Shown here: piece by piece, positions 1,260-26,845 of the stretch
Position numbering within the stretch: position 1 is the stretch's first letter
How the letters are laid out: the number at the start of each line of letters is the position of its first letter
Assembly (NCBI GenBank): GCA_034780895.1
Contig: JAUZTB010000087.1
Location: 6,091,264 to 6,155,263 of the forward strand
Direction: 5' to 3'
DNA from: Rhynchobatus australiae
Taxonomy: Eukaryota
DNA: 64,000 nucleotides
The notes under the pieces: model-generated
Told to the model about the DNA's origin: nothing
The model's input: the letters and a program-made list of their open reading frames with translations, nothing else
The model's database searches: none
Program-made: the position numbers and the translations under genes

Positions 1260-1470
1260 TGTGCAATGGTAAATACAACAATTCTGTGCTGATTTAGGAC
1301 AACGCGCTTCAAGAAATGATGTGCATCATGATTCGCTGAATATCAATGCGCCCGTGTTCACCAATCAGAAGCTATGATGTGTTTGGCGATCCGGACTGCC
1401 CCTGACATTACCCACCCACCCCGTATGTGAGATCAGAGGCAGTGAAAAATTGGATAGCCAGCAGCTCGTA
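1260..1470 (+). promoter_or_regulatory. Promoter cassette of variable exon V1 (degenerate copy)
   Basis: Same ordered motifs as the other six promoters: TGTGCAA-TGG-TAAAT (1260), GCTTCAAGAAA, TGATTCGCTGAA (first CCAAT box mutated), CACCAATCAG (CCAAT at 1361), GTGTTTGGCGATCCGGACTGCCCC. Lies ~200-400 bp upstream of the ATG. Confidence 0.75.
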
Positions 1471-1658
1471 GGATTTTTTTTGCGAGCATCCACTGGTAAC
1501 TTTGAAAAAAATCAGAAGATGAGCATGAAATGAACCGTGAGATTTATGATTCGGCAGGAGTGTGGAACATCGTGGTTTAAATACTTGAAACATCTAAATA
1601 AAGGGACGATTAATGGTGTCGTCACGTCCTAAAAACGTTGGAATGCTTTACACTGGAA

Positions 1659-4103
1659 ATGAGGTATAAAATATATTGGCTGCTAAAATGTCGATTGCTG
1701 TACTGCGTGTTCTCTTTGTGGAGTATAGTTTCGGGGACGATTCATTATTCAATTCCTGAAGAGCTGCAACTGGGCGCCTTTGTTGGGAATCTAGCAGACG
1801 ATTTGGGTTTAGATATAAAGCAGCTTTCGACTCGAGGTTCTCGGATCGTGTCCGGCCCCAAGAAAGTATATATGGACATCAATTTGGACAATGGAATNNN
1901 NNNNNNNNNNNNNNNNNNNNNNNNNNNNNNNNNNNNNNNNNNNNNNNNNNNNNNNNNNNNNNCATTAGATGTCTTGCTCGAAAACCCCCTCAGACTGTAC
2001 CAGGATTCAGTGGAGATTCTCGATGTAAATGACAATGCTCCCGGTTTCCCGGAGAGCCAAATCCGCCTTGAAATCTCAGAGCTGGCAGCACCGGGAGCGC
2101 GATTCCTTCTCGAGTCTGCGCACGATGCGGATGTTGGAACCAACTCTTTGCAAACGTACAAGCTCCAGCCGAACGAATATTTTTCTCTGGATGTGCAAGT
2201 GCGCAAAGGGAATGAGATGTCACCAGTATTGGTGCTGAAGAGTCCTTTGGACAGAGAAAAAGAATCCGTCCACAAATTAGTTTTGGTAGCAGAAGATGGC
2301 GGGGTACCTTTAAGGTCTGGTAGTGTTCAGCTTACCATCATAGTGAAGGATGCAAACGATAACGTGCCTAATTTCCCTCAGTCGGTTTACAAGGTCAGTC
2401 TATTGGAGTCTGCGCCCAAAGGAACGCTTATTATCAAATTAAACGCGACTGACCTGGACGATGGTCCCAATGGAGACATTATCTACTCGTTCAGCAGCCA
2501 TAATTCTGCTAGAGTACGGAAACTTTTTGATGTTCATTCCAAAACCGGTGAAATCGTATTGAAAGGGAATTTGGATTACGAAGATAGTAGCACCATTGAG
2601 ATTAACATACAAGCAACGGACATGGGCTTGAACTCAATGGCTGTGTATTGTGACGTGTTGTTGGACATTGTGGATGCCAATGATAACGCACCTGAGGTGA
2701 CGCTCACATCCCTATCGAGTACAGTTTTGGAAGATGCACCCAATGGGACGATAGTTGTTCTATTCAGTGTAGAAGACAAGGATTCGGGGCAAAACGGGCA
2801 AGTACAATGTCAAATTTCAAAGGAACTTCCCTTTAGACTCGATTCATCTTTGAAGCATTATTATGGGCTGCTTATTGACCAACAGTTGGATCGCGAAAAT
2901 ACCTCCAGGTATGATGTTGCTGTAACATGCACGGATGCAGGAATCCCTCCTCTCACATCCATGAAAACAGTTCGCGTTGAGGTTTCAGATGTAAATGACA
3001 ATGCACCACGATTTATGCAGCCTATGTACACGGCAAACATCATGGAGAATAATGTTATTGGTGCGGCTATATTACGTTTAAATGCATTTGATCCTGATGT
3101 AGGACAGAATGCCAGATTGAAGTTTTCTATTCTGGAGTCTCAACTTCAGAACAACCAGGCAAATTCCTATGTCTCTATTAACTCAGAGAGTGGCGTCATG
3201 TTTGCTCAGAGATCTTTTGACTACGAACAATTGAAAATCTTCCATATCCAAGTTCAGGTTCAGGATTACGGAGTCCCATCCCTCAGCAGCAACGTTTCAG
3301 TGGAGGTTGTTATCCTTGANNNNNNNNNNNNNNNNNNNNNNNNNNNNNNNNNNNNNNNNNNNNNNNNNNNNNNNNNNNNNNNNNNNNNNNNNCGGTTTGC
3401 AGAACCAGGATACCTAGTCGTCAAGTTATCAGCCACTGATGGTGACAGTGGTCAAAATGCCTTGCTTTCTTTCCAAATTTTTCAGGCTACCCATCATGAC
3501 CTTTTTATTATTTCACCGGAGACTGGCGAAATTTGGACTATCCGTCGAATTATGAGCAAGGATGCCTCGGAGCAAAGGCTGGTGATTGTGGTAAAAGACA
3601 ATGGAACCCCTTCACTTTCGGCGTCTGTGACGATAGTATTGACTGTAGTTGGCACTGACAGTGAAACATTGTCCAGTGTCAACAGTTTCCCTAAAAATTC
3701 CGGGTTCACTCACGATCTTAGCTTCTCCTTGGTCATAACATTTGGGGTAGCATCTATCATTTTCTTTGTTATTTTGCTAATCCTTGTTCTTAAGGTTCAT
3801 AAAAACAGACAAGGATTCGGAGAGCAGCACAGCTCCTGTTGCTGTTTTGGACCAAGAAATTCTCTGAATGGAATTCAAAAAGCCAGTAGAAGCCTGCAGA
3901 TACCTCCGAACTATGTCGAGGTATTCGGGGGCGATCCACTTTCTCAACGATTTCGTTACGAGTCATGTTCAACTTTGCAGTCGACGAACGTCAAAGCATG
4001 TGGGCAATCTGGAGACCATCATTATATGCAGAATGAGTCTTTCAGGAAAAATAAACCTGAAAGGGTGAACTTGGACAATTCAAGCAGCACTGTAAATAAT
4101 GAG
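1659..4103 (+). CDS. PCDH: Clustered protocadherin variable exon V1 (signal peptide, EC1-EC6, TM, variable cytoplasmic domain)
   Basis: ORF 1638-4163 with first ATG at 1659. Shows YSIPEE, repeated DxNDN/LDRE/AxDxG calcium-binding motifs, a hydrophobic TM, a Cys cluster and [16 protein letters not shown]. Ends at a phase-0 donor GAG|GTGAGG (4103/4104); unspliced stop at 4163. Two internal N gaps. Symbol is family-level only. Confidence 0.95.
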
Positions 4104-5426
4104 GTGAGGTCCTCCTTAAAATCAATTAGATATACTCAATTGGTTTGGTTTAGGTATGTTTGAGGATCGCTGAATGGGAATCAATTTTCAGGCTCCTCTT
4201 TTTCATTTTTTGGTTCGATTTCTTCTGAGTACCTCTGTTTCTTCGTTTTAAATCAGGATACGAGTCTGACCAAAAAAAACAGACAATGATGCTTTTCCCC
4301 CTCTGTTTGAATTATCTTCACCAGTGATCTACGTATGTTGAGTCATTGAGCACATTCAAGACAGGGATGGATAGATTTTATATGTACGGCAGAATTAAAA
4401 GTTATGGGGACATAGAGTTAAGGTCCAAAGGTGAGATATGCTATGATCATGATGAATTGTGCAGGGACTGGATGATGTAGTTCAGCTGTTATTTCTGATG
4501 CTCTTTGTGCCCGTATCTCTCTACAGTTGTTCATATTTATTTTTACAAAGATATTATCAAATCTTTTACAGTGCTTTCTGCAGATCCACGTGACTTCATG
4601 GATAGTCTTAAAACACGCCTGAGCATATTTGAATTTCTGCATGTTGAGGTCATCCCAAATGGTCTGTGTGCATTCACGTTTTACCAATGTGATGAAGAAT
4701 TCTCAGCATGACATGCGCAGAACAATTTCCTTGTGAGCAACATTAGATTTCCATTCAGGACTTGCAAACAGGTTATTTAATATCTAAACCTGATGTAAAT
4801 CCAATGACTGGGATTATTTCAATATGGCCACAAATGTTCTTTCCTCTCGTTATGGTTTGAGTAAGTCAAATAACGATACTAATGGCCATGGCATTCTGTT
4901 CGGGAAATAGCTTATATTTTTTTCCTCATATTGTATCAGCCACTGCATCAAGAAAATTAAGTAGGTTATTGCTTTGAGAGATTTTTTGAAGGCGGGGGCT
5001 TCAGATTGAAGTGTCGAATGTTTTGCTTAATAAACGCTTCATTATTCATTTGCTCCAGNNNNNNNNNNNACAGTTGCACCTCGTGTTTGCAAGTGATGAA
5101 CTGAACCTATTTTAACTCATCTTTTCCCTGTCAGCCAAAGTCTATTCTGCTTTCAATCTGTTACCGGTATCATAATTCCCAACGTTTTCCGTTTGCAAAG
5201 TAATTCCAAAATTAGATCATGAAATAGCTATTATGTTGCCATTTGTAAGTGGGTTTAGTGGCAAAATAACCAGAAAAAGTGAGGGTTCATATGAACGTTG
5301 AATATAGGTATATTTTACAGCGAGAGGGAAATATTATTAAATGTATTCGTTATAAGACATTTTCCCACGATTAATTTAGCAAATACGATCATAATTATAA
5401 GGGGAAACGAAGATGGGATTTTCAAC

Positions 5427-5640
5427 TGCACAATTGTAAATGTTAATTTTAACCAAATAATTTGAGAAGACATTGCAGCTTTAAGAAACGCTCAGTGCAA
5501 GGATTGGTTGAACGTGAGGGACTCCGTTGGCCAATCAAGAGCAGCGGTGCGACTGGAGATCTTGACTGCCCCCTTTCCTCCCCATCCACCGTCACAGCCG
5601 ATCAGACACTGTGTAAACCTACATGGCGGACGGCGAAATG
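5427..5640 (+). promoter_or_regulatory. Promoter cassette of V2
   Basis: TGCACAA-TTG-TAAAT, CAGCTTTAAGAAA, GATTGGTTGAA (ATTGG at 5503), CCAATCAA (5531), GCGACTGGAGATCTTGACTGCCCCC, GATCAGA. Confidence 0.8.
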
Positions 5641-5831
5641 TTTGCTTGGTTTATTCGGCTGCTCAAGAGCTTCAGAGAAACAAGAAAAAAATCTCAACGG
5701 CTCGCAACTTCGGTTTCTTGTGCCTTATAACGCTTGTTCACTAAGGAAATGATATATCAAGAAATTAATTTTCAAGACGGAACCAACGGCGCCGTATAGC
5801 GCTGAAGCAATTGGAATGATTTGTGCCGGCG

Positions 5832-8279
5832 ATGGGATATTATCAAATAATTTGGAGGCTAAACTGGCAACTGTTGTATTGTTTTATCTTCGACTGGGCC
5901 GTGGCTTCTGGACAGATTCGTTATTCGATTCCTGAAGAGCTGCAACTGGGCGCCTTTGTTGGAAATATCGCCGACGATCTGGGGCTACGTGCAAATGAGC
6001 TCTCCGCTCGCAATTTTCAGATTGTGCCTGGTTCCCGGATACAGTACTTGGAGGTAAATTTAGACAATGGAATTATGTTTGTTACAGAGAAAATCGACAG
6101 GGAGCAGTTGTGTGGAACGAGCCTCACGTGCATTTTGTCTTTGGAGGCTGTAGTTGAAAATCCTTTGACTGTATATCACATTGAAGTGGAGATTTTGGAT
6201 GTAAACGACAATGCTCCCAGATTCCCAACTAGCCAGTTTCGCCTTAAAATCTCGGAGCTAGCTGCACCGGGAGCGCGCTTTCCCCTGGAGTGTGCACACG
6301 ATCCGGACGTTGGATCCAATTCCCTGCAAACCTACCAGCTGACTGCTAACGAATATTTCGTATTAAATATTGACTCGCGCGGTGGGGACGGTAAGTTGCC
6401 AGTATTAGTGCTCGAACGGCCTATGGATAGAGAAAAGCAAGCGACACATAAGTTGGGACTGCTCGCCAAAGACGGGGGATTTCCTGCCAAGACTGGCACT
6501 GCTGAAATAATAATTGTAGTGCAGGACGAAAACGACAACGCACCCATCTTCCCAAACTCCATTTACAGAATTAGTCTCCGAGAAAATGTGCCCAAAGGAA
6601 CACTGGTTATCAAATTAAATGCCACTGATTTAGATGATGGCTCGAATGGAGACATATTGTACTCATTCAGTAGTCACACGCCTGCTGTAGTCCGTGAAAT
6701 ATTTTCTGTGGATTCTAAAACAGGGGACATCAGAGTGAAAGGAAATTTGGACTATGAGAAAGAGAGTATATTTGAGATTAACGTACAGGCTCTGGACCAG
6801 GGTATTAATCCAAGTGCCGGATACTGTCACGTTGTGGTTAATATTATCGATGTCAATGATAACGCCCCTGAAGTGAAGTTAACCTCTTTATTCAGCCCTG
6901 TCCGTGAAGATTCACCACCCGGGACTGTGGTTGCTCTGATTGGTGTATCGGACCAGGACTCTGGTGAAAATGGGCAGGTCGAGTGTGAAATCACAGCCAG
7001 ACTACCCTTTGTGCTGGATTCATCTTTAAGGAATTATTACAGATTACTTACTCATCAGTTGCTGGATAGAGAAAATACCTCGAGCTATGACATTCCTATC
7101 GTGTGCAGTGATTTGGGGTCTCCTCCTCTCACATCCAGGAAAATCATTACAATGGAAGTTTCGGATATAAATGACAATGCGCCGCACTTTACGCAGCCTT
7201 CCTATACGGCTTACGTGATGGAGAACAACGTCATTGGGGCGTCAATCATCACAGTGACGGCTTTTGATCCAGATTTGAGCAAGAACTCCCAAATATTTTA
7301 CTCAGTTCTGGAAAAACAACTGCTGAACGAGCCCGTGTCCAGTTATATCAGTGTCAATTCCAAAAACGGTGTTGTATTTGCTCAGAGAACTTTCGATTAC
7401 GAGCAACTCAAAAACTTTCAGATCCAAGTCCAGGCCAGGGACTCTGGAGACCCGCCACGCACTGCCACCACTTCGGTGGATATAATTATCCTTGACCAGA
7501 ATGACAACGCCCCAGTGATCGTGCACCCTGCCGCAGAGTATGGCTCAACAGCATTGGAGACAATATCCCGCCTCGCAGAGCCAGGCTACCTGGTCACCAA
7601 GATCACTGCCACGGATGCTGACTCGGGACAGAATGCACGGCTCTCTTACCAGATTCTCCAATCAACTGACGCCGGACTATTCACCATCTCACCTGATACA
7701 GGAGAAATTTGGACAATCCGCGGCTTCGCGAGGAAAGATGCAAACAAGCAAAGGCTGGTTGCTGCGGTAAATGATAATGGGACGCCGTCACTTTCTGCTG
7801 CAATTACTCTCATCTTGTCGGTGGTAGAAGATGATACAGAAATTCTTTCTCGTGTGAACAACTTGTCTGAAGATGCTGGGTTGACCGGTGATATAACCTT
7901 CTACTTTGTTATCGCTTTAGGGATAATCACGTTCACTTTCTTTGTCATTTTAATCGGTCTTGCCATCACCGTCTACAAAAACAGAAATGGTTTTGGCGGC
8001 TATACCTGTTCCCTGGATACATGCTGTTGCTTTCCAGCAAGAACCTCGCTGAATGGCTTCCAAAAGGGCGGGAGAACTCTCCATATACCCCCGAATTATG
8101 TTGAAGTATTTGGGGGCGATCCTCTTTCTCAAAAGTTCCGCTACGGGACCTGCTCCACTTCCCATTCGACAAAGGGAGATTTCTTGTACTCCAACGGGTG
8201 CAGTAATGATGCCGGGGATGAAATTGCGTGCAATAATGAACAGTTACAATCAGCACATTCTAACAATTGTCGCGTGTAA
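5832..8279 (+). CDS. PCDH: Clustered protocadherin variable exon V2 (intact ORF, no canonical 3' donor, ends at in-frame TAA)
   Basis: ORF 5823-8279 with first ATG at 5832. Six EC repeats, EC1 C-X5-C, TM and the [16 protein letters not shown] motif. Ends AAT TGT CGC GTG TAA instead of GAG|GTGAG. Confidence 0.93.
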   Translation: MGYYQIIWRLNWQLLYCFIFDWAVASGQIRYSIPEELQLGAFVGNIADDLGLRANELSARNFQIVPGSRIQYLEVNLDNGIMFVTEKIDREQLCGTSLTCILSLEAVVENPLTVYHIEVEILDVNDNAPRFPTSQFRLKISELAAPGARFPLECAHDPDVGSNSLQTYQLTANEYFVLNIDSRGGDGKLPVLVLERPMDREKQATHKLGLLAKDGGFPAKTGTAEIIIVVQDENDNAPIFPNSIYRISLRENVPKGTLVIKLNATDLDDGSNGDILYSFSSHTPAVVREIFSVDSKTGDIRVKGNLDYEKESIFEINVQALDQGINPSAGYCHVVVNIIDVNDNAPEVKLTSLFSPVREDSPPGTVVALIGVSDQDSGENGQVECEITARLPFVLDSSLRNYYRLLTHQLLDRENTSSYDIPIVCSDLGSPPLTSRKIITMEVSDINDNAPHFTQPSYTAYVMENNVIGASIITVTAFDPDLSKNSQIFYSVLEKQLLNEPVSSYISVNSKNGVVFAQRTFDYEQLKNFQIQVQARDSGDPPRTATTSVDIIILDQNDNAPVIVHPAAEYGSTALETISRLAEPGYLVTKITATDADSGQNARLSYQILQSTDAGLFTISPDTGEIWTIRGFARKDANKQRLVAAVNDNGTPSLSAAITLILSVVEDDTEILSRVNNLSEDAGLTGDITFYFVIALGIITFTFFVILIGLAITVYKNRNGFGGYTCSLDTCCCFPARTSLNGFQKGGRTLHIPPNYVEVFGGDPLSQKFRYGTCSTSHSTKGDFLYSNGCSNDAGDEIACNNEQLQSAHSNNCRV

Positions 8280-8379
8280 CTTTGCTGGTCCATAAATGCA
8301 CATTGTAAACTTTATATGGCCGCGCTGAATTGCTGCAGATAAATGGTCCTTAAAATACGCTTTTCGCTTTTTCTAAACA

Positions 8380-8620
8380 ACACACAAAAAGCTGGAGGAA
8401 CTCGGCGGGTCAGGCAGCATCTATAGAGGGAAATGACCAGTCAACGTTTCAGGATGAGACGCCTCATTAGGACTGGCTGTAGGTTCTCAGCCTATGAAGG
8501 TTCTCGACCCAAAAAATCAGCTGTCCGTTTTCCTCCACAGATGCTGCCTGACCTGATGTTCTTCCAGATTTGTGCCTGTTGCCTCAGATTCCCAGAATCT
8601 GCAGTCTCTTATGTCTCCAT
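8380..8620. mobile_element. Penelope-type terminal-repeat-derived element with internal inverted repeat
   Basis: GCTGGAGGAACTCGGCGGGTCAGGCAGCATCT followed by its inverse CAGATGCTGCCTGACCTG. The same unit recurs many times in the window and flanks Penelope-like coding fragments at ~50.8-51.1 kb. Confidence 0.6.
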
Positions 8621-9080
8621 TGACCTTTCCCTAATTGTTCTTCGCAGAATAAACTTCACACTTTTCGTGAAACCCTTCAGATTGATTCAGCATTAACAAT
8701 TTATGAAATCATTCTGGTTGTTTTGCAGTTTCTCCTATTTATGCAATTAATTGGTCATATAATTGTGTGTTGTAGGTGACATCAGTTCGTTGCACCTGTA
8801 AGATAAACTTCATTGCTATCAGATAGAGAGTAGATGTTCAACCATCGGTCAGACTTGAACATGATGTCAGGTACATTGTTCATCTGGATAGATGTATAAC
8901 AAATCATAACGAACACTTGATATCAGCTAATATACTAGGAAAAGCTGTTCAGCTTTGATTAGTTTTAGTTGCCGCTGATGAAGATGTGGTGTCATCAAAG
9001 TGCTGGAACAGATATATGCGCTTTATAATTCTCAAGGTCACGTGATCTAAATGGAAATGGGTGAAGTAAGAACCAGCATT

Positions 9081-9157
9081 GTGTGTGTGNNNNNNNGTGT
9101 GTCTGTGTGTCTGTGTGTGTCTGTGTCTGTGTGTGTGTGTGTGTATGTCTGTGTCTG
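9081..9157. repeat. (GT)n/(GTGTCT)n microsatellite
   Basis: Directly visible; contains a small N gap. Confidence 0.95.
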
Positions 9158-9304
9158 CGTATACATACGGGGTGTATGTCCAAGTAAAGGTGAACAATCA
9201 ATTAATCATGTAATACGCATGGATTGGATTGGAGTAGACTCGATCAGGTGAATGTCATCGTTATTGGCCATAAACATGTATAATTATATGGATGTTAACA
9301 TAAC

Positions 9305-9830
9305 AGCATAAGAACACGCAGCTTGGTAACAGGAATAGGGCCATTCGTGAGTGCAGCTAGATAGTCCCTCTTTATCTGGTTCCGCCACCACCTCTCTTAT
9401 CAGATAATCTGCAGTCAGTTGTTGTCTCCACTTACTACCGCCCAGCTGCTGACACTCTTTCCACCCCCCTCCCACCCTCCCACCTGACGCCATCTGCCCA
9501 TCAACCCTTCCTCACCTGGATCCACCTGTCGGTCATTAGCTCCCGCGCCACCCCTTCCCCTCATCGTTGTACTGGCTCTCTCCCCTTTACACACTTAGTC
9601 CTGACGCAGTCTCGTTCTGAAACATGGACTATTCCTCTGCATCCAGATATGTTGCTTGACCCGCTGAGTACCTCCAGCAGCTTGTTGTTTGCTTTGGGCC
9701 GTTGAGTGCTTGCCTGCCCCACCATTCAACAAGATCATGGCCGATTATTTATCTCAGTGCCACTTACATGCACCAGCCTCACATGTCNNNNNNNNNNGAT
9801 TGCCTTAACATCTAAAACATCTGAGGAAGA
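9305..9830. mobile_element. Degraded CR1-type 3' tail interrupted by a Penelope-type fragment (~9400-9695)
   Basis: CATAAGAAC..GGCCATTCG and CCACCATTCAACAAGATCATGGC tail pieces flank a C-rich segment ending in CTTGACCCGCTGAGTACCTCCAGCAG. Confidence 0.45.
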
Positions 9831-11210: not shown

Positions 11211-11400
11211 TTGTGCAACAATAAATGCAGGCAATGTCGCTTTAACAGGACAGCCTAGCTTTAAGAAGCGAACATAGTTATGATTGGTTGACTATGGCCC
11301 ACCAATCAGCAGCTGCTATGTGACTGGAGATCCTGACTGCCCCTTCCCTTCCACCATTACATACGAACACAAAACAATGCGAATTGGACGGCGAGCTGCG
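11211..11400 (+). promoter_or_regulatory. Promoter cassette of V3
   Basis: TTGTGCAA-CAA-TAAAT, TAGCTTTAAGAAG, TGATTGGTTGA (11283), CACCAATCAG (11302), GTGACTGGAGATCCTGACTGCCCC, GCGAGCTGC. Confidence 0.8.
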
Positions 11401-11611
11401 TTGGGTTGCAGCAGTTTTCTTGGATCCATCGAATGCGGATTTTAGCAACAAACTGGAGAGGTTCATGAAGCAAATGCGACCATTTATTGAAAGGAAACAT
11501 ATTCTTCTGCAAGGAAGCCTTTCTTATGAAGGTATACATATTTTTTAATCACAGGACTAAACCGAAAGACACCGTATCGGACCGAAGCCATTGGAATGTT
11601 TAACACCGGCG

Positions 11612-14077
11612 ATGAGATGTTATAATATATTTTGTTTCTTAAAATGGGAACTGTTGTATTACATGCTTATTGCCTGGGAGCGAGCTTTGGCGGAGATTCA
11701 TTATTCTATTCATGAGGAATTGCAGCGAGGCGCCTTTATTGGGAATATTGCAGATGATTTAGGTTTAGATGTTAAACAGCTCGCCGCTCGTAATTTTCGT
11801 CTTGTCTCAGGTGAAACAAAGCAGTATTTGGAAGTGGATTTAAACAATGGGATCTTATTTGTAAAGGAAAAAATTGACAGGGAGGAACTCTGTGGTCCAA
11901 GCCTCACTTGCGTTCTGTCTTTGGAGGCCGTGCTTGAAAATCCTCTCAATCTGTACCAAATCGAGGTGGATATTCTGGACATTAACGACAACTCTCCCAG
12001 TTTTCCAAAAAACCAGATCCGCCTTAAAATCTCTGAGCTTACCGCGCCAGGGGCGCGCTTTCCTCTCGAGTGTGCTCACGATCCGGATATTGGAACCAAC
12101 TCCGTTCAAACCTACCAGTTGGTTGCAAATGAATACTTTGCATTGAATGTTGAAGCTGGAATTGCAGATTGGAAGTTGCCAGTTTTAGTGCTAGAACAAC
12201 CCCTGGACAGGGAGAAGCATTCAACCCACAGACTACTGCTCTTAGCAAAAGATGGCGGGGTCCCCGAAAGGTCAGGCACCGCCCAAATTAACATCGCAGT
12301 GGAAGATGCCAACGATAATGCACCGGTATTCTCTCGGTCGGTTTACAAGAGCAGTTTATTAGAAAATGTGACTAAAGGGACATTAGTGCTGCAAGTAAAT
12401 GCCACTGATTTGGACGATGGTTCAAACGGAGAGGTTCTGTACTCCTTCAGTAGTCATACCTCTGCCAGAGTCCGTGAGATTTTTGGTTTGGATCCTCATA
12501 CTGGCGAAGTAAAACTTAATGCGAATTTAGATTATGAAGAATATAGTACATTTGATATTATTATACAAGCAAAGGACAAGGGCTCTAACCCTGTCCCCGT
12601 GTACAGTCACCTTTTATTGACTATTTTAGATGTAAATGATAACGCACCTGAGATAACCCTAACATCTTTATCAAGCCCATTTCCGGAGGATTCGCCACCT
12701 GGAACTGTAGTAGCTCTAATAAGTGCGTCTGATAGAGATTCTGGCAAGAATGGACAACTCCAGTGCCAAGTAGGAAATAAAGTGCCTTTCACGCTGGATT
12801 CTTCCTCCAAGAAACACTTAAGATTACTCACCCGAGACCTCCTCGACCGTGAATCCACCTCCATGCACAATGTAACGATTACCTGCAGAGATGGAGGAAC
12901 TCCGCCTCTCACCACGAACAAAACCATCCAGATTGAGGTTTCAGACAGAAACGACAACTCCCCACAATTTTCTCAAACTTTGCTCACAGCCTACGTGATG
13001 GAAAACAATAATATTGGTGCCTCTATTTTCTCAGTGACGGCTTTTGATCCCGACCTGGATGAAAATGCTCGGATATCATATGATATTCTTGAAAGTTGGG
13101 TAGGGGGCCAGTCAGTGAGCAATTATATCTATATTATTTCGGAGACTGGTATTATATATTCCTACAGATCTTTTGACTATGAACATTTAAAAACCTTTCA
13201 AATCCGGGTTCAGGCACGTGACCATGGAGTCCCATCACTTTCCAGCAATGTTTCCGTAGATGTCATCATCCTTGACCAGAATGATAACGCCCCAGTGATC
13301 GTTCATCCATTAACCGAGCATGGGCCAACGACCACAGAGGTTGTATCGCGATTCGCTGAAGCAGGCTATCCAGTGACCAAAGTTACGGCTACAGATGCCG
13401 ACTCGGGGCAAAATGCTCGCCTCTACTATCGGATCCTCCAAGCTACTGACTTAGGACTATTTACTATTGCAGAGGACACCGGAGAAATCTGGACAACTCG
13501 TGCTATTGCAAAGACCGATACAACCAAACAGACGTTGGTTGTCCAAGTGAGTGACAATGGGACACCAGCACTTTCTGCTTCAATAACTATTATTTTGTCA
13601 TTGATCGATGGCGAGGAATCGTTATTGTCTGACAGGAACAGCATGTTGCAAGGGCCCAACTTTGCTTCTGTAACCAGCCTGTACTTGGTGATTTCATTAG
13701 GAATAATTTCGTCCATTTTTCTGGTGATTTTAATTATACTAGCTGTTAAAGTTCACAAAAGCAGAAATGTGTTTGAGGACCACGGTTGTGTACTGGGCTC
13801 CTGTGGTTGCTTCGGTACAAGACAATCACTCAATGGAATTCAGAAAGCCAGCCGCAGTCTTCACATTCCTCCCAACTATGTTGAAGTATTTGGGGGTGAT
13901 CCGCTTTCACAAAGTTACCGCTATGAGACTTGTTCCATGGCACGTTCAACAAAGGGAGACTTCCCGTTCCCAAACACCAACGGTTCATCGAAGGGAAAGA
14001 ACACAGCCTCCGATGGGACTATTGCAAATGGAGGAAGTGTATTATTCACGAATTGTGGGAAGTCTGCTCATTCCGAG
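11612..14077 (+). CDS. PCDH: Clustered protocadherin variable exon V3
   Basis: ORF 11591-14113 with first in-frame ATG at 11612. Six EC repeats, TM and the cytoplasmic motif. Phase-0 donor GAG|GTGAGA at 14077/14078. Confidence 0.95.
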
Positions 14078-15534: not shown

Positions 15535-15740
15535 TTGTACAACCTTAAATGTAGTTAATTGAGCCAAGTTTTAAAAATGCAGTCCAGCTTTAAGAAATGC
15601 TTAGTGTGGTGATTGGCTGAACTTAAGTCAGCCTTTTTCACCAATGAGCGGCTGTGATGTGACTGGAGATCCTTGCTGCCCTACCCTCCCCTTCCGCCAT
15701 TGTATACGACCAGACACCGTGTATCAGGGTAGAGCTGCTT
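15535..15740 (+). promoter_or_regulatory. Promoter cassette of V4
   Basis: TTGTACAA-CCT-TAAAT, CAGCTTTAAGAAA, TGATTGGCTGAA (15612), CACCAATGAG (15641), GTGACTGGAGATCCTTGCTGCCC, CCGCCAT. Confidence 0.8.
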
Positions 15741-15955
15741 GTTCTAACATTCAGTTCTTTACGTTCATCTTTTGGCGAAATTTGAAGAAATAAGAAGGTT
15801 TGTCAGAATCGTTACGTAGAATTTTTAAGCAGAACGTTTGGTTTTTATGCAATTCAGCTGTATTACTCAAATGGAATCATAATTTACTCTTTTTAGCAGG
15901 AATTATTCAACGACGCCGCGTTGTTCTCAATCATTTGAAATGCTTTGTGCTGGAA

Positions 15956-18400
15956 ATGGAATTTTATAAATTATATTGGCTAATGAAATGGCAACTTTTA
16001 TATTGTATTATCCCTTCCTGGCAACTAATTTCTGGACAGATACGTTATTCGATTCCTGAAGAATTGAATGCCGGCGCCTTTGTTGGGAACATCGCAGAGG
16101 ACCTGAATTTGGATATTAAAGAACTCTCAGCTCGCGGTTTTCAAATTGTGCCTGGTCCCAGCAAGCAGTATATAGACGTAAATTTAGACAATGGGGTTTT
16201 GTTTGTGAGGGAAAAAATGGACAGAGAACAGTTGTGTGGGCTGAGCCTCGCTTGCACGTTATCTTTGGAAGCGGTGATTGAAAATCCTCTAAATGTGTAT
16301 CATTTTCAAGTGGACATTTTGGATGTAAATGACAATGCCCCGAGTTTTCCAGAGAGTCGGTTCAATTTGGAAATATCAGAGGTGGCTGCTCCAGGAACGC
16401 GCTTCGCTCTGGAGTGCGCACAGGACCCGGACGTTGGAACCAACTCTGTACAGAGCTACCAGCTAGTAGACAATCTCTATTTCTCCCTCGATGTTGAGAC
16501 GCGGGGTGGCGACGGAAAGTTACCGGTTTTAGTCTTGGAAAGACCGCTGGACAGAGAAAAGGAAAGTACACACCGGTTGGTGTTAATAGCTAAGGACGGA
16601 GGGATTCCTGAGAGATCTGGCACTGCTGAAATAATGATCGCTGTAGAGGATGCCAATGACAACGCGCCGGTTTTCCCCCAGCCGGTCTACAGGGTCAGTT
16701 TGCAGGAGAATTCACCCAAAGGAACGTTAGTGATCAAACTGGATGCCAAAGATTTGGATGCTGGACTCAATGGGCAGATCGTGTATTCGTTTAGTAGTCA
16801 CACTTCCAATAGAGTTCGTGAAATATTTGGGCTGGATTCTAAATCTGGGGAAATCAGAGTTAAGAACAATCTGGACTACGAGGAAAACAGTGTTTTTGAA
16901 ATTAACATCCAAGCAAAAGATAAAGGTCCTAACGCAACTCCTGTGTACTGTCACGTGGTGGTTAACATTGTTGATGTGNNNNNNNNNNNNNNNNNNNNNN
17001 NNNNNNNNNNNNNNNNNNNNNNNNNNNNNNNNNNNNNNNNNNNNNGGACTGTGGTGGCTCTGATCAGTTCAATAGACAAGGATTCGGCTGACAACGGGCA
17101 CGTGGATTGCGAAATCCCAAGAGACCTTCCATTTAAACTGGATTCATCCTTAATTAACTACTATAGGCTGGTTACCCGGGAGACATTGGATCGTGAACGT
17201 GTATCAACCTACAATGTAACCATCGTGTGCAGCGACGCCGGGATTCCTCCACTGACATCCAACAAAACGATCCTGGTGGAGGTCTCGGATACAAATGATC
17301 ACCCACCTCAGTTTACACAGCCTATATATACAGCATATGTGATGGAGAATAACGCCATTGGTGCATCCATATTCTCTGTGACTGCTTTAGATCAAGATTT
17401 AAACAGGAACGCCCATCTGTCCTATTTTATTTTGGAGACTCAGATTCAGGGCATGTCAGTATCCACGTATGTTTCGATTAACTCGCACAGTGGTGTCATA
17501 TTTGCGCAGAGAAGTTTCGACTACGAGCATCTCAAAAACTTTCAGATCCAGGTTCAGGCACGGGACTCTGGATCCCCACCACTTTCTGGAAATGCTACAG
17601 TGGATGTGGTTATCTTGGATCAGAACGACAATGCTCCCGTGATAGTGCATCCATTACCCGAATTCGGTTCTACTGTGTTAGAAACCATATCCCGGCTCGC
17701 AGAACCGGGTTACCTGGTTGCCAAGGTTTCTGCTACGGACAGTGACACTGGCCAGAATGCTCGCCTTGCCTACCAGATTCTCCAAGCCACTGACGTCGGT
17801 CTCTTTACCATTTCACCGGACACGGGAGAAATCTGGACAATACGCAGTATTCGGAAGAATGACGCCGCGAAGCAAAGGTTGGTCATCTGCGTAAAGGACG
17901 ATGGATCACCGCCACTTACAGCCACAGTGACAATCATCTTGTCTTTAGTTGGAAATGATAGACAAATGCTGTCAGAAGTGAATAGCTTGTCTGAGGATGC
18001 CGGGTCTGCCTCTGAGACCAGCTTTTACCTCGTAATAGCTTTAGGGGTTACCTCGTCTGTTTTCCTAGTGATTTTGATTATCCTCGCCATTAAAGTCCAT
18101 AGAACCTCTTCTCTTGGCGCATGTGGTTGCTTTACAGCTGGAAACTCACTACATGGAATCCACAGAGGCAAAAGAAGCCTTCAGATACCACCAAACTATG
18201 TTGAGGTGTTTGGGGGTGATCCACTTTCTCAGAGCTTCCGCTATGATTCATGTTCAAGTTCACATTCTGTAAAGAGGGATGTCAGGTTGTCCAACAGTGG
18301 ATCTACGCGTAAGAATTATGCTCCTAGTGGCTTTTTGGGAAATGGCGATACCTTACAAACCCCCAATTCTGCGCAGTACAGGAACACTGTAAATAATGAG
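15956..18400 (+). CDS. PCDH: Clustered protocadherin variable exon V4
   Basis: ORF 15800-18469; the ATG at 15956 aligns with paralog starts (MEFYKLYWLMKWQLL). Six ECs and TM. Phase-0 donor GAG|GTGAGG at 18400/18401. One internal N gap. Confidence 0.95.
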
Positions 18401-19147
18401 GTGAGGTTGTTATTCGATGGCGAAAAGAACACCTCATGGGTTTCAGTTGGAAGTACAAATGATTACTGAAAACATTTAGATCATGAAGATCGGATTTAGT
18501 CAATGCCTGTGAATCAGTCATATCAGATCACTCTGTGATCTGAATTTCCAGTCGCTGTTTCTGGATCAGCTCCTCTGCTAATCAGTCGTTTGCCTTTTGG
18601 TGCGTTTATATTGTTTTAACATTTCGTTGCATGTGGGAGTTAGAAAATATTACCATTAAGAATGTGCGGATAAAGCACAATTGCAGAAAAATAGCCTTGG
18701 ATATATTATCAGCTGCATTTTCGCGGTAGAAAAACAGGAAATACTGCTTACACTGGTTATTTGCTGGGGCATGGGAGATTAAAAGAAATGAGTGTCATTG
18801 CCCTCCTCAGGATACTGATGTCATGAGGCTTGGTACTGGATTGATATTTCTGTGGAGACTTTGTGAAATTGCATGTTTTACTCGAATAACTCAAATCAAC
18901 AGTCGACATTATGTAATGTCATGGACTGAATTGGGGATTAATCATTAGAATAACTAAATTAAGTGTTGGTTATCTGTTCTGAAAGAGGCATGAAACCATG
19001 CATATCAAGGATTAGATGGTTCAAAAATTACATAAAATAGGTTTTTTAATGGGTTGAAAAGTAGTAGCTCTTAGAAAATCCACCACAAGTTAGCATAAAA
19101 AAAGAATATTGCCAAACCATTACAGAAGACGGTGCAAGTAATTTATA

Positions 19148-19350
19148 TTGTACAATAAAAAATGTAACTAGGACGCGGAGGTTAACAGAGACATTCCAGC
19201 TTTAAGAAATATTCTGTGTGGTGATTGGTTGAACGTCAGTTCACCAATGAGAAGCTGAAATGTGTCTGGAGATCTTGACTGCCCCCTTCCCTCCCAGCGT
19301 CCATTACGTATGATCAGATACAGTGTCAAACTCCGCATAGCGAGCTGCAT
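19148..19350 (+). promoter_or_regulatory. Promoter cassette of V5
   Basis: TTGTACAA-TAA-AAAAT, CAGCTTTAAGAAA, TGATTGGTTGAA (19224), CACCAATGAG (19244), GTGTCTGGAGATCTTGACTGCCCCC, GATCAGA, GCGAGCTGC. Confidence 0.8.
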
Positions 19351-19560
19351 AACGCCGGAACGGGTTTTGTATTCGAAAACACTGGATATTTTAATTACAA
19401 TGAAAAGGTTCGAACAAAATATCAATAATCTTTGAAAAATACAGGTACTTTATGCAACATTGCCTCTTTTATCTTTAAAACTGGCATTTGTAGAATCTTA
19501 TTCAAGAAAATCGGTGAATGGCGTGTCGCGCTGAAGTAATTGCAATGCTTTGTGCAGGAG

Positions 19561-22005
19561 ATGGGATATTCTAAAATATATTGGCGGTTAAAATGGTCAC
19601 TTTTTTACGTTGTGTTATCATCCTGGGTTCTGGTTTCGGGACAGATTCGCTATTCAATTCCTGAAGAGCTGCAACTGGGCGCCTTTGTTGCGAATATCGC
19701 AGACGATTTGGATTTAGACGTGAAAGAGCTGGCTGCCCGCAGTTTTCGGATTGTGTCTAAACCCAGGAAGCAGTATCTTGATGTAAATTTGGACAATGGA
19801 ATTCTTTATGTAAAGGGGAAAATTGACAGGGAGCAGCTCTGCGGGTCGAACCCCGCGTGCACATTGTTCTTAGAGGCCGTGATCGAAGATCCGCTAACCG
19901 TGTATCATTTTCAAGTCGAAATTCTGGATGTAAATGACAACGCCCCCAGTTTCCCCCAAACCCAATTCCGCTTGGAAATCTCAGAGATTGTGGCACAAGG
20001 AGCGCGCTTTGCCCTCGAGTCTGCGCATGACCCAGATGCTGGAGTCAACTCCGTACAGACGTACCAGTTGAACGATAACGAGTATTTCACGATAGACGTG
20101 CAGTCACGCCGTGGAGATGGCAAGTTACCGGTGTTAGTGTTGCAAAGGCTACTAGACAGGGAAAAGCAAAGGATCCATAAGTTAGTCCTGATTGCCAAAG
20201 ACGGAGGCATCCCTGAAAAATCTGGGACGGCGCAAATAATCGTCATAGTGCAGGACGCGAATGACAACGCGCCGGTGTTCCAGCAATCGGAATATAGGAC
20301 GAGGCTGCTGGAAAATACACCCAAAGGAACACTGGTAATCAAACTAAATGCTACTGATTTAGATGATGGCCCCAATGGGGAGATTGTGTACTCCTTCAGT
20401 AGCCATGCTTCCAACAGAGCCCGTGAGATGTTCAGTGTGGATTCCAGAACCGGCGAAATCAGGGTCAAAGGGAATTTGGACTACGAGGAAAACGATGTTT
20501 TTGAGGTCAACGTACAAGCGACGGACAAGGGGCCTTATGCAACTCCTGTACATTGTGAAGTGTTGGTGGACGTTATTGACATCAATGACAACACACCTGA
20601 GGTGACATTGACTTCTATATTCAGTCCTGTCAGTGAGGACGCCTTGCCCGGGACAGTGGTCGCCCTGTTTAACGTGAATGACCAAGACTCGGGAGATAAT
20701 GGGCAGGTACATTGCCAAATTTTAAGTGGATCTGCTTTCAAATTGGATTCCTCTTTGACCAACTATTACAGATTACTAACGGAGCAAAGGCTGGATCGCG
20801 AAAACATCTCAAATTACGATGTTACAATCGTATGCAGTGATAGCGGAACTCCCCCTCTCACATCCAAAAAATCCATCCGGGTGGAGATTTCCGATATAAA
20901 TGATAACGCGCCACGTTTTACGCAATCTTCATACACAGCCTACGTAACGGAGAACAATGCTATTGGGTCTTCTATCTTCTCAGTGACTGCCATTGATCCG
21001 GATGCAAACCAGAACTCTCAGCTGTCTTACTCTATCATGGAAACATGGGATCAGGTCTTGCCAGTATCCACTTACGTGAATATTCATTCGGAAACTGGTG
21101 TCATCTATGCTCAGAAGTCATTTGACTACGAACAGCTGAAAAACTTTCAGATCTGTGTCCGAGCACAGGACTCTGGGTCTGTTTCACTGGGCAGCAACGT
21201 TTCAGTAGATGTCATTATCCTCGATCAAAATGACAATGCCCCAGTTATCATTCATCCACTGCCAGAATATGGCTCTACAGTGACGGAGACTGTGTCGAGG
21301 TTCACTGAGCCCGGTTACCTTGTCGCCAAAGTATCTGCAACCGACGCAGACTCTGGCCAGAATGCTCGCCTCACTTACCAGATTTTCAAAGCTACAGACT
21401 CTGGACTTTTTACGATTTCCTCAGACTCGGGGGACATATGGACAATCCGTGGCGTCCTGGACAAAGATCTTAGGAAGCAACGTTTGGTCGTTGTTGTAAA
21501 AGACAACGGGGAGCCGGCACTTTCAGCTACAATAACCATTATTATCTCCTTGGAACAGAGTAAATCAGAGTTGCTGTCTGAGGTGGACAGTTTATCTGAA
21601 GAATCAGTTCTGGCTCCGGACACGAGCTTTTATTTGGTCATAGCCTTGGGATTAATTTCTTTCGTCTTTCTCGCAATTTTGGTTGTGCTCGCCATTAAAG
21701 TTCACAGAAACAGACGGGGTTTTGATGATCGTAACTCCTGCTGTTTTGTGGCAAGAAGTCAAAAGACGAGTCGGAGCCTTCAGATACCCCCAAACTATGT
21801 TGAAGTGTTTGGAGGCGACCCACTTTCTCAGAGTTTCCGCTATGATACGTGCTCCACTACACACACTATCAAGGGAGACTACGTGTTCCGCCACACGTGC
21901 AGCTCACCTGCGGGCAAAAATAACGTCAGTGTCTACCCTGTTGGGAAAGACGAGATTCTACCAGTATTAAACTCTACAAGCTGCAGAAACACTGACTATA
22001 GTGAG
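19561..22005 (+). CDS. PCDH: Clustered protocadherin variable exon V5
   Basis: ORF 19540-22221 with first ATG at 19561. Six ECs, TM and the cytoplasmic motif. Phase-0 donor GAG|GTGAGA at 22005/22006; the ORF-track extension beyond this is intron and N gap. Confidence 0.95.
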
Positions 22006-22424
22006 GTGAGAAGCGTTTCCAAAGGTGGGGGGCACAGCNNNNNNNNNNNNNNNNNNNNNNNNNNNNNNNNNNNNNNNNNNNNNNNNNNNNNNNNNNNNNN
22101 NNNNNNNNNNNNNNNNNNNNNNNNNNNNNNNNNNNNNNCACGTTTGATTTGGATACATGTCAAGATCTCAACTGGTGGAAATGAAAAGATGGGATTCCCA
22201 TCTATTCTGGACTTTTCCTGATCATCGTCTCTGCACCAGGCTCAATGACTTCATCGTTTTATTTTAATTTATGTGCCAGCCAGTAAATTTATAGTTGTTG
22301 CTATTTCGCATAAAATTATTGTGAATTGTATATATTTTGCAGATTATAATGAAATTGCAGTAGGAATACCAATATTTTATGACAGTATAATGATAGGTTG
22401 CTGTTCGGCTTTCTAACAAAGAAG

Positions 22425-22630
22425 ATCTCCAGAAATTCAAACGGAAACTGCTGAAAACAGTCAGCAGGTCAGGCGGCATCTGCGGAAACAAAATAAATCA
22501 GATCTGACCAAGGGTCTTCGACCTTAAGCGTCAAATCTGCTTCTTTTTGCACAGATGCTTCCTGGGCTATTGCTGTTTCCAACAATTTCTGCTTTTATTT
22601 CAGATTTTCAGCATCTGCAGTTTTGGTGTT
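22425..22630. mobile_element. Penelope-type inverted-repeat element
   Basis: CAGCAGGTCAGGCGGCATCTG ... CAGATGCTTCCTGG ... CAGCATCTGCAG; same family as 8380-8620. Confidence 0.55.
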
Positions 22631-22840
22631 TTTCAAAACAAAGCAGGAATACGTTTTATATTGGATACCATGAGTGTTATTGAAGGATCAGACGTTGCTC
22701 TGCCATCTAAAGATAAATGACAATAAACACCACCAGAAATGTCGACATCTTGACAGCAAGTTTTGATTTATCCTCCTAGAATGTTTTGCAGAAGGAATAA
22801 GTTTAATATGTTGAAAGAAAGGGAGGGTAAATATTTTTAA

Positions 22841-23040
22841 GTGTACAACTATAAATACCGCAGCGGTTTTCAAGGCCGCTCTAGCTTTAAGCAGTGCTAA
22901 AGCAGTGATTGGTTGAATGCGGAAATGCACACGTTCACCAATCAGAAGCCAGAAGTTGGCTGGAGATCTCTCCCTATCCACCATCACGTAAGATCAGCTA
23001 CAGTGTAAAAATGGACAGCAAGCCGCGTAATGCTGCATTA
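22841..23040 (+). promoter_or_regulatory. Promoter cassette of V6 (TGACTGCCCC sub-box deleted)
   Basis: GTGTACAA-CTA-TAAAT, TAGCTTTAAGCAG, TGATTGGTTGAA (22908), CACCAATCAG (22938), GGCTGGAGATCT followed directly by CTCCCTATCCACCAT. Confidence 0.78.
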
Positions 23041-23234
23041 GGATCCGAGTATGCATCTTTGGATGATTTTAGAAATAAGAACATTTGCCTTAGTTAATGT
23101 CTGGATTTTCAAATTGTGCAGGTATTTTTTTACAACTGAAAGCTCTGTAAAATTATATAGAAAGACGTTTATTAAGACGGTTTCGCGAACGGAGCAGGGC
23201 TGCGCTGAAGCATTTGAAATGATTTTCGCTGGAA

Positions 23235-25709
23235 ATGGGATATTGTAGAATATATTGCTTGAGAAAATGGCATCTGCTATACTGTCTATTCTCCTTCTGC
23301 GGTCTAGTTTCGGGACAAATTCGTTATTCCATTCCCGAAGAACTGCAACTTGGCGCCTTTGTTGGTAATATCGCAGACGATATGGGTTTGGATGTGAAAG
23401 AACTCTCAGCTCGAAATTTTCGCGTCGTTCCGGGTCTCGGGAAAAAATATTTGGACGTAAATTTAGACAATGGGATTTTGTTTGTGAAGGAAAATATTGA
23501 CAGAGAACTGCTTTGTGGGTCGAGTCTTACTTGCCTTTTATCAATGGAAGCTGTGATTGAAAATCCTTTAAATGTCTATCGGATTGAAGTGGAGGTTTTG
23601 GATATAAATGACAACGCTCCCAATTTTCCAAAGAGTCAGTTCCGTTTAGAAATCTTTGAAGTGGCGGCCCCGGGTGCACGTTTCCCCCTTGAGTGCGCTT
23701 ACGATTCGGACGTGGGAACCAACTCCCTACAAAACTATCGCCTGGTTGGAAATCAATACTTCGCGCTCGACATTGAGACCCGCAGTGGGGATGAGAAGCT
23801 GCCAGTGCTAACGCTGGAGAGGGCACTGGATAGAGAGAAAGAAGCAACTCACAAGTTGCAACTAATTGCCGAGGACGGCGGGATCCCTCCGAGGTCCAGC
23901 ACTGCTGAAATACTAATCGCAGTGCAGGATGCCAACGACAACTCTCCCGTGTTCTCCCAGTCAGTGTATAGGGTCAGCCTGAATGAAAATGTGCCCAAAG
24001 GAACACTTGTTATCAAGCTTAATGCGACTGACTTGGATGATGGTTCTAATGGGGATATTGAGTATTCCTTTACAAGCCATACATCGGCAACAGTACGTGA
24101 ACTGTTTGATCTGCATTCCAAAACAGGGGAAATCAAAGTGAAGGGGAATTTGGACTATGAGGTAAATAGTGCCTTTGAGATCAATGTTCAGGCAATGGAC
24201 AAAGGCTCAGCTCCAGTACCTGCGTACTGCCGTGTTCATGTGGATATTATTGACGTGAATGATAACGCTCCTGAGGTGATGGTGACCTCTCTGTTCAGTC
24301 CAATTGGCGAAGGCTCTCCCCCGGGGACTGTGATAGCGCTGGTTAGTACTACAGACAAAGACTCCGGAAAAAACGGTGAGGTTGATTGTCAAATCCCAAA
24401 TAACCTTCCATTTAAGCTGAATTCGCCCTTAATAAATTATTACAAGTTGTTAACCGTGGACCAATTGGATCGGGAAAACATCCCCAAGTATGACGTCACT
24501 CTACTATGTCGTGACTCAGGCTCGACTCCTCTTACTTCCAAGAAAACCATGCAGATCGAGATCTCAGATGTAAATGACAACTCACCTCGTTTTAGCCAAT
24601 CCTCGTACACAGCCTATGTGATGGAGAACAACGTCATCGGAGCCTCTGTCGTATCAGTGACAGCCACAGACGCTGATTTGAACCAGAATGCTAAACTATC
24701 ATTTTCCATTCTGGAAAGTCAGGTCCAGAGTGAGTCTGCAGCCAACTACGTTTACATTAATTCAGAGAATGGAATCGTTTTTTCTCAAAGAAGTTTCGAC
24801 TACGAGGAACTCAAAAGCTTCAATTTCCAGGTTCAAGCACAGGACAGCGGAATCCCACCACTCACCAGCAACGTTTCGGTGGACGTTGTTATCCTTGACC
24901 AGAACGACAATGCCCCAGTGATTCTGCACCCACTACCTGAACGTGGGTCAACCGTCCTAGAAACAATGTCCCGCTCTGCGGAGCCGGGTTATCTGGTTAC
25001 TAAAGTCTCTGCCATGGATGCTGACTCGGGCCAGAATGCTCGCCTCTCTTATCAGATTGTCCAGGCTACTGACCCAGGACTTTTCACCATTTCACCTGAC
25101 ACGGGCGAAGTGTGGACCATCCGTCGCCTGGTGGAGAAGGATGCGACGAGGCAAAAGTTAACGATTGTGGTAAAAGACAATGGAACGCCGCCGCTTTCAG
25201 CTTCCATGACCATCAGCTTGTCCGTGGTCGATGGGGATGCCCAGCTGTTTTCTGGTGTCACAGAGTTGGACGATGAGGCGGCTTTCAAGTCTGCGTTGAG
25301 TTTTTACTTGGTGATATCTTTGGGGGCAATTTCTTCCATCTTTCTGCTGATCTTAATCATCCTCGCTGTGAAGGTCCATAAAAGCAGGAGTGGATTTGGT
25401 GTTTACAGTTGTTACGGGGACATCTGCTGCTGTTATAAATCAAGACGCTCTCTCAGCGGCATTCAGAAAGCTAGCAGAAACATTCAGATACCTCCGAATT
25501 ATGTGGAGGTATTCGGAGGCGATCCGCTTTCTCAAAGCTTTCGCTATGGAACCAATTCAACGATAGCTTCTACCAAGAGAGATTACCCGATTCCCAATAC
25601 GTGTAGTTCGTCTGCAGTGACAAATAAAGGCGGGGGTGGGCCTAATGAGAAATGCAAATACCTGCACTCCCAGGCTCCTGAAAATTGTAGAAACTCTGTA
25701 AACACTGAG
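23235..25709 (+). CDS. PCDH: Clustered protocadherin variable exon V6
   Basis: ORF 23235-25754. Six ECs, TM, Cys cluster and [20 protein letters not shown]. Phase-0 donor GAG|GTGAGG at 25709/25710. Confidence 0.95.
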
Positions 25710-26431
25710 GTGAGGTGTTCCTTAAGAAGGGAAATAGATACCTCACAAGTTTGATATGGTTGCATCTATTTGCAGTAGAACATATTGCTGACATTTTCTG
25801 TTTGGTGATATGAAGTTCCGTGTGATATCTACAACTCATAACCACAAAGCATTTTACTTTTAGTCAAACTATCTGAGTATTCTATGGCGATTCTTTTTGA
25901 AGGAGCCAGGCGTTATTTATGATTCAGGCATTGTCGTCGCCGAAGGATGGTTCAGCTAATTTAAAACATGACAAATTTAGGGAAATAGTTTTAGAGAATC
26001 TTAATGAATCTATGGCATATGTGAAATAATACCCAACCATCAACGCACTAATCTTTTCATAGTATTGTTTGAAGAATGTGGTACATATACAACTGCACTA
26101 AATGTAAATATAATCCTGGTAATATCGTGGCATCCGTGTTTTGTAACTGATTTCTTGCTGGTCAGTTCTTGCATTTCTTGCACGGTTCAGAGGTCAGTGC
26201 GAGTATCAAAACTACCTGAAATAGTCAGACAGGCGAATGTAACATATTTAGAAGAATACTGAAGCAGTTCAATTGGGAGAACTGACTGGTCAAGGGAACA
26301 TGTAATTATTTTACAAGCAAAGCATAAATAGATGGTCTTTAATTTCTCCTCTTTGAAAGCTTCTTGAAAACTATTTGAGCGGGATATTTAAATATCTGAA
26401 CGAGTGATAATGGAGGCAGGTTCAAATTTAG

Positions 26432-26642
26432 ATTGCGCAACTATAAATATTGCTTTCCAAAGCCCGATAAAGTGTGTCAGCTTTAAGAAATTAGGTCTCT
26501 TGTGATTGGCTGAAGGCGAATGCCGCTCCACTCACCAATCAGAAGCTGAATGGTGACTGGAGATCCTGACGGCCCTTGTCCCTGCCTCTCCGCCATCATA
26601 TCTGATCCGATGCAACATGAAACTGGATAGCGAGCTGCCTGA
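26432..26642 (+). promoter_or_regulatory. Promoter cassette of V7
   Basis: ATTGCGCAA-CTA-TAAAT, CAGCTTTAAGAAA, TGATTGGCTGAA (26505), CACCAATCAG (26535), GTGACTGGAGATCCTGACGGCCC, CCGCCAT, GCGAGCTGC. Confidence 0.8.
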
Positions 26643-26845
26643 GAATGTATCAGAATCGTGATTTTACAAGATTTGGGAAGATTTGACTGCAAATACAAAA
26701 TCTCGAAGATTTGTCACAACTGCAGGTATTTTCTTATAATGGAGCGCCTTATTTGGGATTTTAAAACATGATAACCACTTTATTCCAGTGAATAAATGAG
26801 CAGCGCCGTGACGTGCTGATACATTCGGAATGCGTTGTGCCTGAA

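Follow-up and report, generated by a model that had tools for sequence, protein, structure and literature searches.

Each variable exon at the 3' end of a ray protocadherin nu subcluster is preceded by a conserved paired-CCAAT module, a candidate promoter with no motif-grade CTCF site

In present models, promoter choice in clustered protocadherins (Pcdh) is explained by the orientation of CTCF sites together with looping by cohesin. Which promoter elements, then, stand before the variable exons of the nu subcluster in a cartilaginous fish? We analyzed 64,000 nucleotides of the ray Rhynchobatus australiae (assembly GCA_034780895.1, contig JAUZTB010000087.1, positions 6,091,264 to 6,155,263, forward strand), hereafter the window, with coordinates counted from its first letter. 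The window represents the 3' end of the batoid clustered-protocadherin nu subcluster and comprises seven variable exons (V1-V7) and a common constant exon. V1-V7 are seven long plus-strand open frames encoding cadherin-repeat, single-pass protocadherins, with start codons at 1659, 5832, 11612, 15956, 19561, 23235 and 26846. Each is preceded by one copy of a ~210-bp module built around two CCAAT boxes, and the seven cassettes share no CGCT box and contain no motif-grade CTCF site.

The module lies ~195-420 bp upstream of the ATG at all seven exons, starting at -393 to -420, and occupies 1260..1465 (V1), 5427..5634 (V2), 11212..11399 (V3), 15536..15738 (V4), 19149..19348 (V5), 22842..23026 (V6) and 26434..26638 (V7), always on the plus strand. 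Leave-one-out nhmmer searches, in which a profile of six cassettes was run against the window, recovered the omitted seventh in every case (7/7, E 1.3e-29 to 1.6e-42) and revealed no eighth copy in the 64 kb, the best off-target match reaching E 0.23. Pairwise identity is 62% between cassettes versus 48-51% in their flanks and 47% in shuffles, and 56 of 224 cassette columns are invariant as opposed to 7/296, 3/297 and 7/171 in the flanks. A repeat search of the window placed a 7-copy and a 6-copy family inside the module, and neither a tandem repeat nor an Rfam family overlapped any copy. A lone string at 26094-26110, some 340 bp before the V7 module begins, resembles box A of V2; the profile search was silent there. 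In four sequencing runs compared over 22640-26950, contigs from three related organisms span the V6 and V7 modules. Among the differences listed (the 40 best-supported of 361 substitutions, and of 17 indels the 12 best-supported), those within modules are a substitution at 26470 and insertions at 22861 and 22862, all in the spacer between boxes A and B; the list is too short to weigh as evidence.

The cassettes have been kept over a long time. A quick tree of extracellular cadherin domains (EC) 1-4, unrooted and with 58 rows after 28 off-register or low-identity rows had been dropped and the delta, epsilon and mu rows of Callorhinchus milii left out, grouped V1-V7 with nu8, 9, 13, 15 and 17 of C. 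milii (clade support 100). In the same tree, each of V1-V7 paired with its own shark ortholog (Shimodaira-Hasegawa-like approximate likelihood ratio test, 99-100), and the paralogs are therefore older than the shark-ray split. Fourfold-degenerate sites of the seven paralogs share 34-48% identity, with a mean of 40%.

Within the module, box A (TGYRCAA-N3-WAAAT) is followed by B (GCTTYAAGMA), C (a reverse CCAAT) and D (a forward CCAAT), and then by E1 (YTGGMGATC) and E2 (C(T/G)GCCC); after a tract rich in C, the GATCAG-like box G and box H complete the array. Relaxed cores of A, B, C, D and YTGGMGATC are present in 7/7 cassettes, with C lacking ATTGG in V1, and C(T/G)GCCC in 6/7, V6 having lost E2 through a ~15-bp deletion. 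An ordered array upstream of each ATG had already been described in a sequence-only reading of this DNA, and its order held in all seven copies, with motifs looser than stated. The strings listed there stand as consensus forms, since exact matches number only six of seven for TGYRCAA-N3-TAAAT, five for AGCTTTAAGAA, four for TGATTGGYTGAA, six for CACCAATSAG, one for a 24-mer (V3 only), four for CCRCCAT, three for GATCAGA and three for GCGAGCTGC. The proposed single box of ~24 bp resolved into two parts, of which only YTGGMGATC was kept in all seven.

Boxes B and C are separated by 24, 24, 24, 24, 24, 23 and 24 bp (V1-V7), D and E1 by 22 bp in 7/7 and E1 and E2 by 13 in 6/6, while A and B lie 42-51 bp apart and box G follows D by 54-70 bp. 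The distance between C and D varies (31, 29, 20, 30, 21, 31 and 31 bp from V1 to V7), corresponding to about two or three helical turns. These spacings therefore describe two rigid blocks joined by a linker that varies by approximately one helical turn, which suggests that the proteins bound there would sit on a single face of the DNA. What is new here is this spacing: paired, opposite CCAAT boxes with two motifs locked 24 bp and 22 bp away.

The two CCAAT boxes are candidate NF-Y sites. Forward boxes (at 1361, 5531, 11302, 15641, 19244, 22938 and 26535) read R-CCAAT-S-A-R in 7/7, and reverse boxes, intact in 6/7 modules (GATTGG at 5502, 11282, 15611, 19223, 22907 and 26504), read RR-CCAAT-C in 6/6; both fit the NF-Y consensus. 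The background rate of CCAATSR is 0.14 per 210 bp. NF-Y recognizes CCAAT in either direction and works through arrays with exact spacing (PMC1802594). The earlier proposal of NF-Y as one of the factors agrees with NF-Y-type flanks in seven forward and six reverse boxes, and NF-Y is the probable ligand. The C/EBP-like factor proposed alongside it fared less well: the perfect palindrome TTGCGCAA reported for box A of V7 is present, but V3 carries one mismatch and the other five copies two to three, the palindrome's first T is kept in only 4/7, and the common core is TGYRCAA-N3-WAAAT. The case for YY1, which the earlier reading named for a motif scan, is also weak: the GCCAT core occurs at box F in only two copies (V4 and V7) and is missing there from the other five. 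V2 carries GCCAT on the reverse strand, further 3' than box F.

We next consider CTCF. No CGCT box occupies one position in all seven copies, in agreement with the sequence-only reading; V4 lacks a plus-strand CGCT within 520 bp altogether, and a CGCT at -32 is found in 3/7, outside the cassette. That CGCT (V2, V5 and V6) belongs to a second conserved, GCGCTGAAG-like patch at -32 to -45, directly upstream of an ATG at -16, and the patch has no CTCF-type score. Scanning the seven promoters (450 bp each, both strands) with a CTCF matrix, as the earlier reading had proposed, returned no site at p<1e-4 in any of them (0/7) and hence no co-oriented significant site. The best promoter scores were 6.6 bits (V6, plus strand) and 5.7 bits (V5, minus strand, at 19277, p 2.2e-4). 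Across the window, 16 matches at p<1e-4 compare with 12 expected, and best-per-cassette scores average 1.6 bits, against a shuffle mean of 1.9; as many as 123 of the 200 shuffles reach the observed average. Sites sampled from the matrix itself have a median of 19.3 bits, with 1.6% at 5.7 or less. The CTCF motif is nearly identical from lamprey to human (PMC5504073).

Taken together, the module is real, old and well defined, and appears best filed with clustered-protocadherin promoters that lack the conserved sequence element (CSE), the CTCF-bound, CGCT-containing site of mammalian Pcdh promoters. We consider it somewhat probable that it acts as a proximal promoter centred on NF-Y, with two partners at fixed distances, a start near box G and no CTCF anchoring. 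Each nu variable exon would then carry one copy of a single ancient proximal promoter that was duplicated along with its exon prior to the shark-ray split and subsequently retained by selection. Its core would be the outward-facing CCAAT pair, probably bound by NF-Y on the same helix face. Its candidate partner sites would be GCTTYAAGMA, which precedes the reverse box by 24 bp, and YTGGMGATC, which follows the forward box by 22 bp. A Sp/KLF-like C-rich tract would come next, and the probable site of transcription initiation lies close to the GATCAG box, 54-70 bp 3' of the forward CCAAT. From the cassette to ATG+500, CpG observed/expected is 0.82-1.05 versus 0.17 at 30-64 kb. If the module does not anchor CTCF, nu exon selection would therefore use no promoter CTCF site; selection might instead proceed by promoter competition, by methylation of the CpG-rich region or by co-expression resembling that of C-type genes.

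Several points weigh against this proposal. The NF-Y consensus applied is an approximate one, the forward boxes carry C rather than a purine at -2 in 6/7, and the reverse CCAAT of V1 is broken (GATTCG at 1330). G+C reaches just 41-46% from cassette to ATG+500, and the helical phasing was noticed post hoc and is based on two short spacers. Regarding CTCF, the matrix is an approximate form of JASPAR MA0139.1, calibrated on shuffles and matrix-sampled sites rather than on real CSEs; human Hox CTCF sites were poorly predicted by motif scanning in PMC5504073; and the top position-matched alignment, a reverse half-site, is positive in 3/7 cassettes (2.1, 1.5 and 5.7 bits).

The alternative that survives best, though we regard it as unlikely, is that V1-V7 are C-type-like genes that expanded in cartilaginous fish with a CSE-free promoter and are expressed by cell type or jointly, not by stochastic choice. 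This would be compatible with an NF-Y promoter and would lessen the surprise. With solved EC1-3 constructs, the nu profile scored γC3 at 391 and αC2 at 386 bits versus 313 for β1 and 318-354 for four generically named chains, and with EC1-4 constructs γC4 reached 417.5 versus 314-373 for γA, γB and β. Xenopus genes of the γC4/C5 clade lack a CSE and share a separate motif (PMC4978886), and expression of mammalian C-type genes is constitutive or follows cell type (PMC7811963). However, α4 (416.6) ties with γC4 and the non-clustered PCDH10 (450.8) lies above both, so the C-type ranking may reflect slow evolution. Moreover, EC1 alone gives C-types no preference, and nu forms its own clade (100) outside the γC5-like clade, with deeper forks at 82-84 in what is an unrooted tree.

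A diverged CSE, to which CTCF would bind weakly and with the aid of neighbours, at the reverse AGGGGCAGTC or another degenerate site, could permit mammal-like choice; we find this improbable. In its favour, V2, V3 and V5 agree with the CTCF core over its 3' half, in what is the best position-matched alignment, and the reverse-strand AGGGGGCAG in V2 and V5, noted earlier as only a half-match, is indeed there (V2 at 5564, 2.1 bits). Zebrafish and Xenopus alpha CSEs without a CGCT box are still named CSEs (PMC4978886), the elephant shark cluster contains a CGCT element according to a second-hand statement in Tan 2010 (PMC2926608), and skates use CTCF-oriented loop extrusion (PMC10115646). Forward CTCF-like sites inside the exons, at +627/+630, pass p<1e-4 in V1 (10.9 bits) and V3 (9.3 bits). 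However, across V1-V7 the half-site scores -6.2, 2.1, 1.5, -5.5, 5.7, -25.6 and -15.7 bits (mean -6.2): it is clearly negative in V1, V4 and V7, and it is deleted in V6, where the GACTGCCCC half is gone. Just 1.6% of matrix-sampled sites fall as low as the best of these values, and the cassettes equal shuffles. The exonic site, which passes in 2/7 exons, scores below 1 bit in the other five and overlies protein-constrained DGG codons, and matches in the window number 16 versus 12 expected.

Still more doubtful is a reading of the 3' part of the module, the GATCAG box plus GGAYRG, as a non-canonical REST/NRSF site that restricts expression to neurons. At one and the same position, V1 (1433) and V6 (22994) each deviate from the published consensus by two mismatches and have an 11-bp spacer, and the Pcdh clusters of fish and elephant shark hold neuron-restrictive silencer elements with 5-11-nt spacers (PMC2926608). 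Yet the window contains 40 matches at two or fewer mismatches, so that ~0.9 would be expected in seven cassettes versus the two seen, five of seven cassettes have no match at that position, and spacers determined by ChIP-nexus (chromatin immunoprecipitation) measure 2 or 7-9 bp (PMC8096226).

That the similarity is a residue of tandem duplication or gene conversion, or a repeat element, with no special function is very improbable and largely refuted: tandem paralogs do share upstream DNA by descent, and cross-species cassette differences are countable just in part (best 40 of 361 substitutions), but these paralogs predate the shark-ray split with fourfold sites at a mean of 40% identity, blocks and spacings persist between flanks that are near random on both sides, and every copy stands before an ATG, none overlapping a tandem repeat or Rfam family.

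The exons themselves form a plus-strand series. V1 (1659..4103) ends at a GAG/GTGAG donor, V3, V4 and V5 span 11612..14077, 15956..18400 and 19561..22005, and V6 (23235..25709) encodes a protein 95% identical to one of Pristis pectinata and 63-65% identical to C. milii nu8, 9, 13, 15 and 17. The final variable exon, V7 (26846..29158), has a GAG/GTACGT donor that agrees with the spliced Pristis ortholog. This donor comes early (29158), leaving a short variable cytoplasmic part like that of the Pristis and shark orthologs of V7; a second GAG/GTGAG lies at 29262, ~100 bp 3' of it and past the stop. Splice donors were located in 6/7 variable exons. The open frame of V2 (5832..8279) has no GAG/GTGAG donor at the usual place, and its end (8265-8285) reads CGC GTG TAA at the point from which its skate and shark orthologs are joined to the constant region by splicing; a Hypanus ortholog of V2 is likewise annotated as unspliced, and V2 may have lost the constant tail. 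The shared constant exon, which encodes the portion of the nu constant region with QRE/VQRD repeats, spans 46818..47050 on the plus strand (approximate ends; tblastn 95% to ortholog P0001, with an AG acceptor and a GT donor). It contains a 12-bp repeat (46845-46926, 6.8 copies) encoding QREV/QRDV-like residues, and its orthologs carry two alternative C-terminal tails after the repeat (P0001 versus P0006). A search of the window's readable sequence did not locate the first constant exon, nor was the last one found inside its 64 kb, and no relic exons were found between the seven variable exons. Between V5 and V6, 22420-22620 may be a shark-type interspersed repeat.

The leaders downstream of the modules show a regularity of their own. 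An out-of-frame ATG stands exactly at -16 in 7/7 exons (1643, 5816, 11596, 15940, 19545, 23219 and 26830), each with G at -3, and opens frames of 8, 39, 9, 9, 9, 9 and 4 codons (V1-V7) that overlap the main start in 6/7; two to six further ATGs lie within 260 bp in the leaders. The ATG at -16 is possibly a conserved translational brake. In one sequencing run (X13, probably DNA), a gapless contig covers V6 from 23003 to 25713, starting 65 bp past the V6 CCAAT and breaking four bases past the V6 donor; these ends are a lead only, as contigs cannot show a start and come from one study. A 5' untranslated region intron, for which CAG/GTA near -112 in V5-V7 would be the donor, had no supporting joint among the joints listed (best 15 of 26).

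If the proposed NF-Y-centred promoter is correct, the nu subcluster would hint at another way of choosing among its genes, built on two CCAAT boxes. Old variable exons with shared constant exons and no promoter CTCF would provide a natural test of the need for CTCF versus co-expression, and the fixed spacings and two short motifs offer exact targets for reporter mutations and pull-downs. The significance would rise sharply if nu isoforms proved to be stochastic without promoter CTCF. A far-reaching joint claim, namely stochastic choice of one promoter per allele through competition among near-identical NF-Y modules without promoter CTCF in a whole cartilaginous-fish subcluster, with the module as the older jawed-vertebrate Pcdh promoter to which bony vertebrates later added the CTCF-bound CSE, strikes us as a long shot. 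A literature search that included few subscription papers found none describing the module in a cartilaginous fish. The suggestion of a different promoter code in the sequence-only reading is sound insofar as CGCT and CTCF-grade sites are missing, but CSE-less Pcdh promoters were already known, which limits novelty: mammalian αC2, β1, γC4 and γC5 lack a CSE (PMC7811963), as do the Xenopus pcdh-gamma2 15-36 promoters (PMC4978886).

Among known systems, the mammalian CSE, or promoter CTCF-binding site (pCBS), resembles the ray module in that every variable exon of a tandem array with common constant exons has a conserved element of its own, located about as far from the ATG on the upstream side; the CSE, too, is spacing-sensitive (PMC3333863). 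The CSE, however, consists of a CTCF site of ~22 bp that includes a CGCT box, whereas the ray module is a ~210-bp, multi-block element with two CCAAT boxes, in which neither a common CGCT nor a match of CTCF grade occurs. Xenopus tropicalis pcdh-gamma2 15-36 likewise form a contiguous run of CSE-less exons with another conserved motif ~200 bp upstream of the ATG, but theirs is a single 13-bp motif in a γC4/γC5-related clade (PMC4978886; compared by description). Elephant shark Pcdh nu represents the same subcluster, V1-V7 grouping with its nu8, 9, 13, 15 and 17, and differs in that a CGCT element is reported, second-hand, for some part of the cluster (PMC2926608). Finally, multi-CCAAT promoters bound by NF-Y (cyclin B2, cdc25C and Mrps12-Sarsm) share precisely spaced CCAAT arrays in either orientation (PMC1802594), in contrast to which the ray array combines opposite box orientation with fixed-distance partner motifs and recurs as a whole ahead of every exon in a neural cluster of variable exons.

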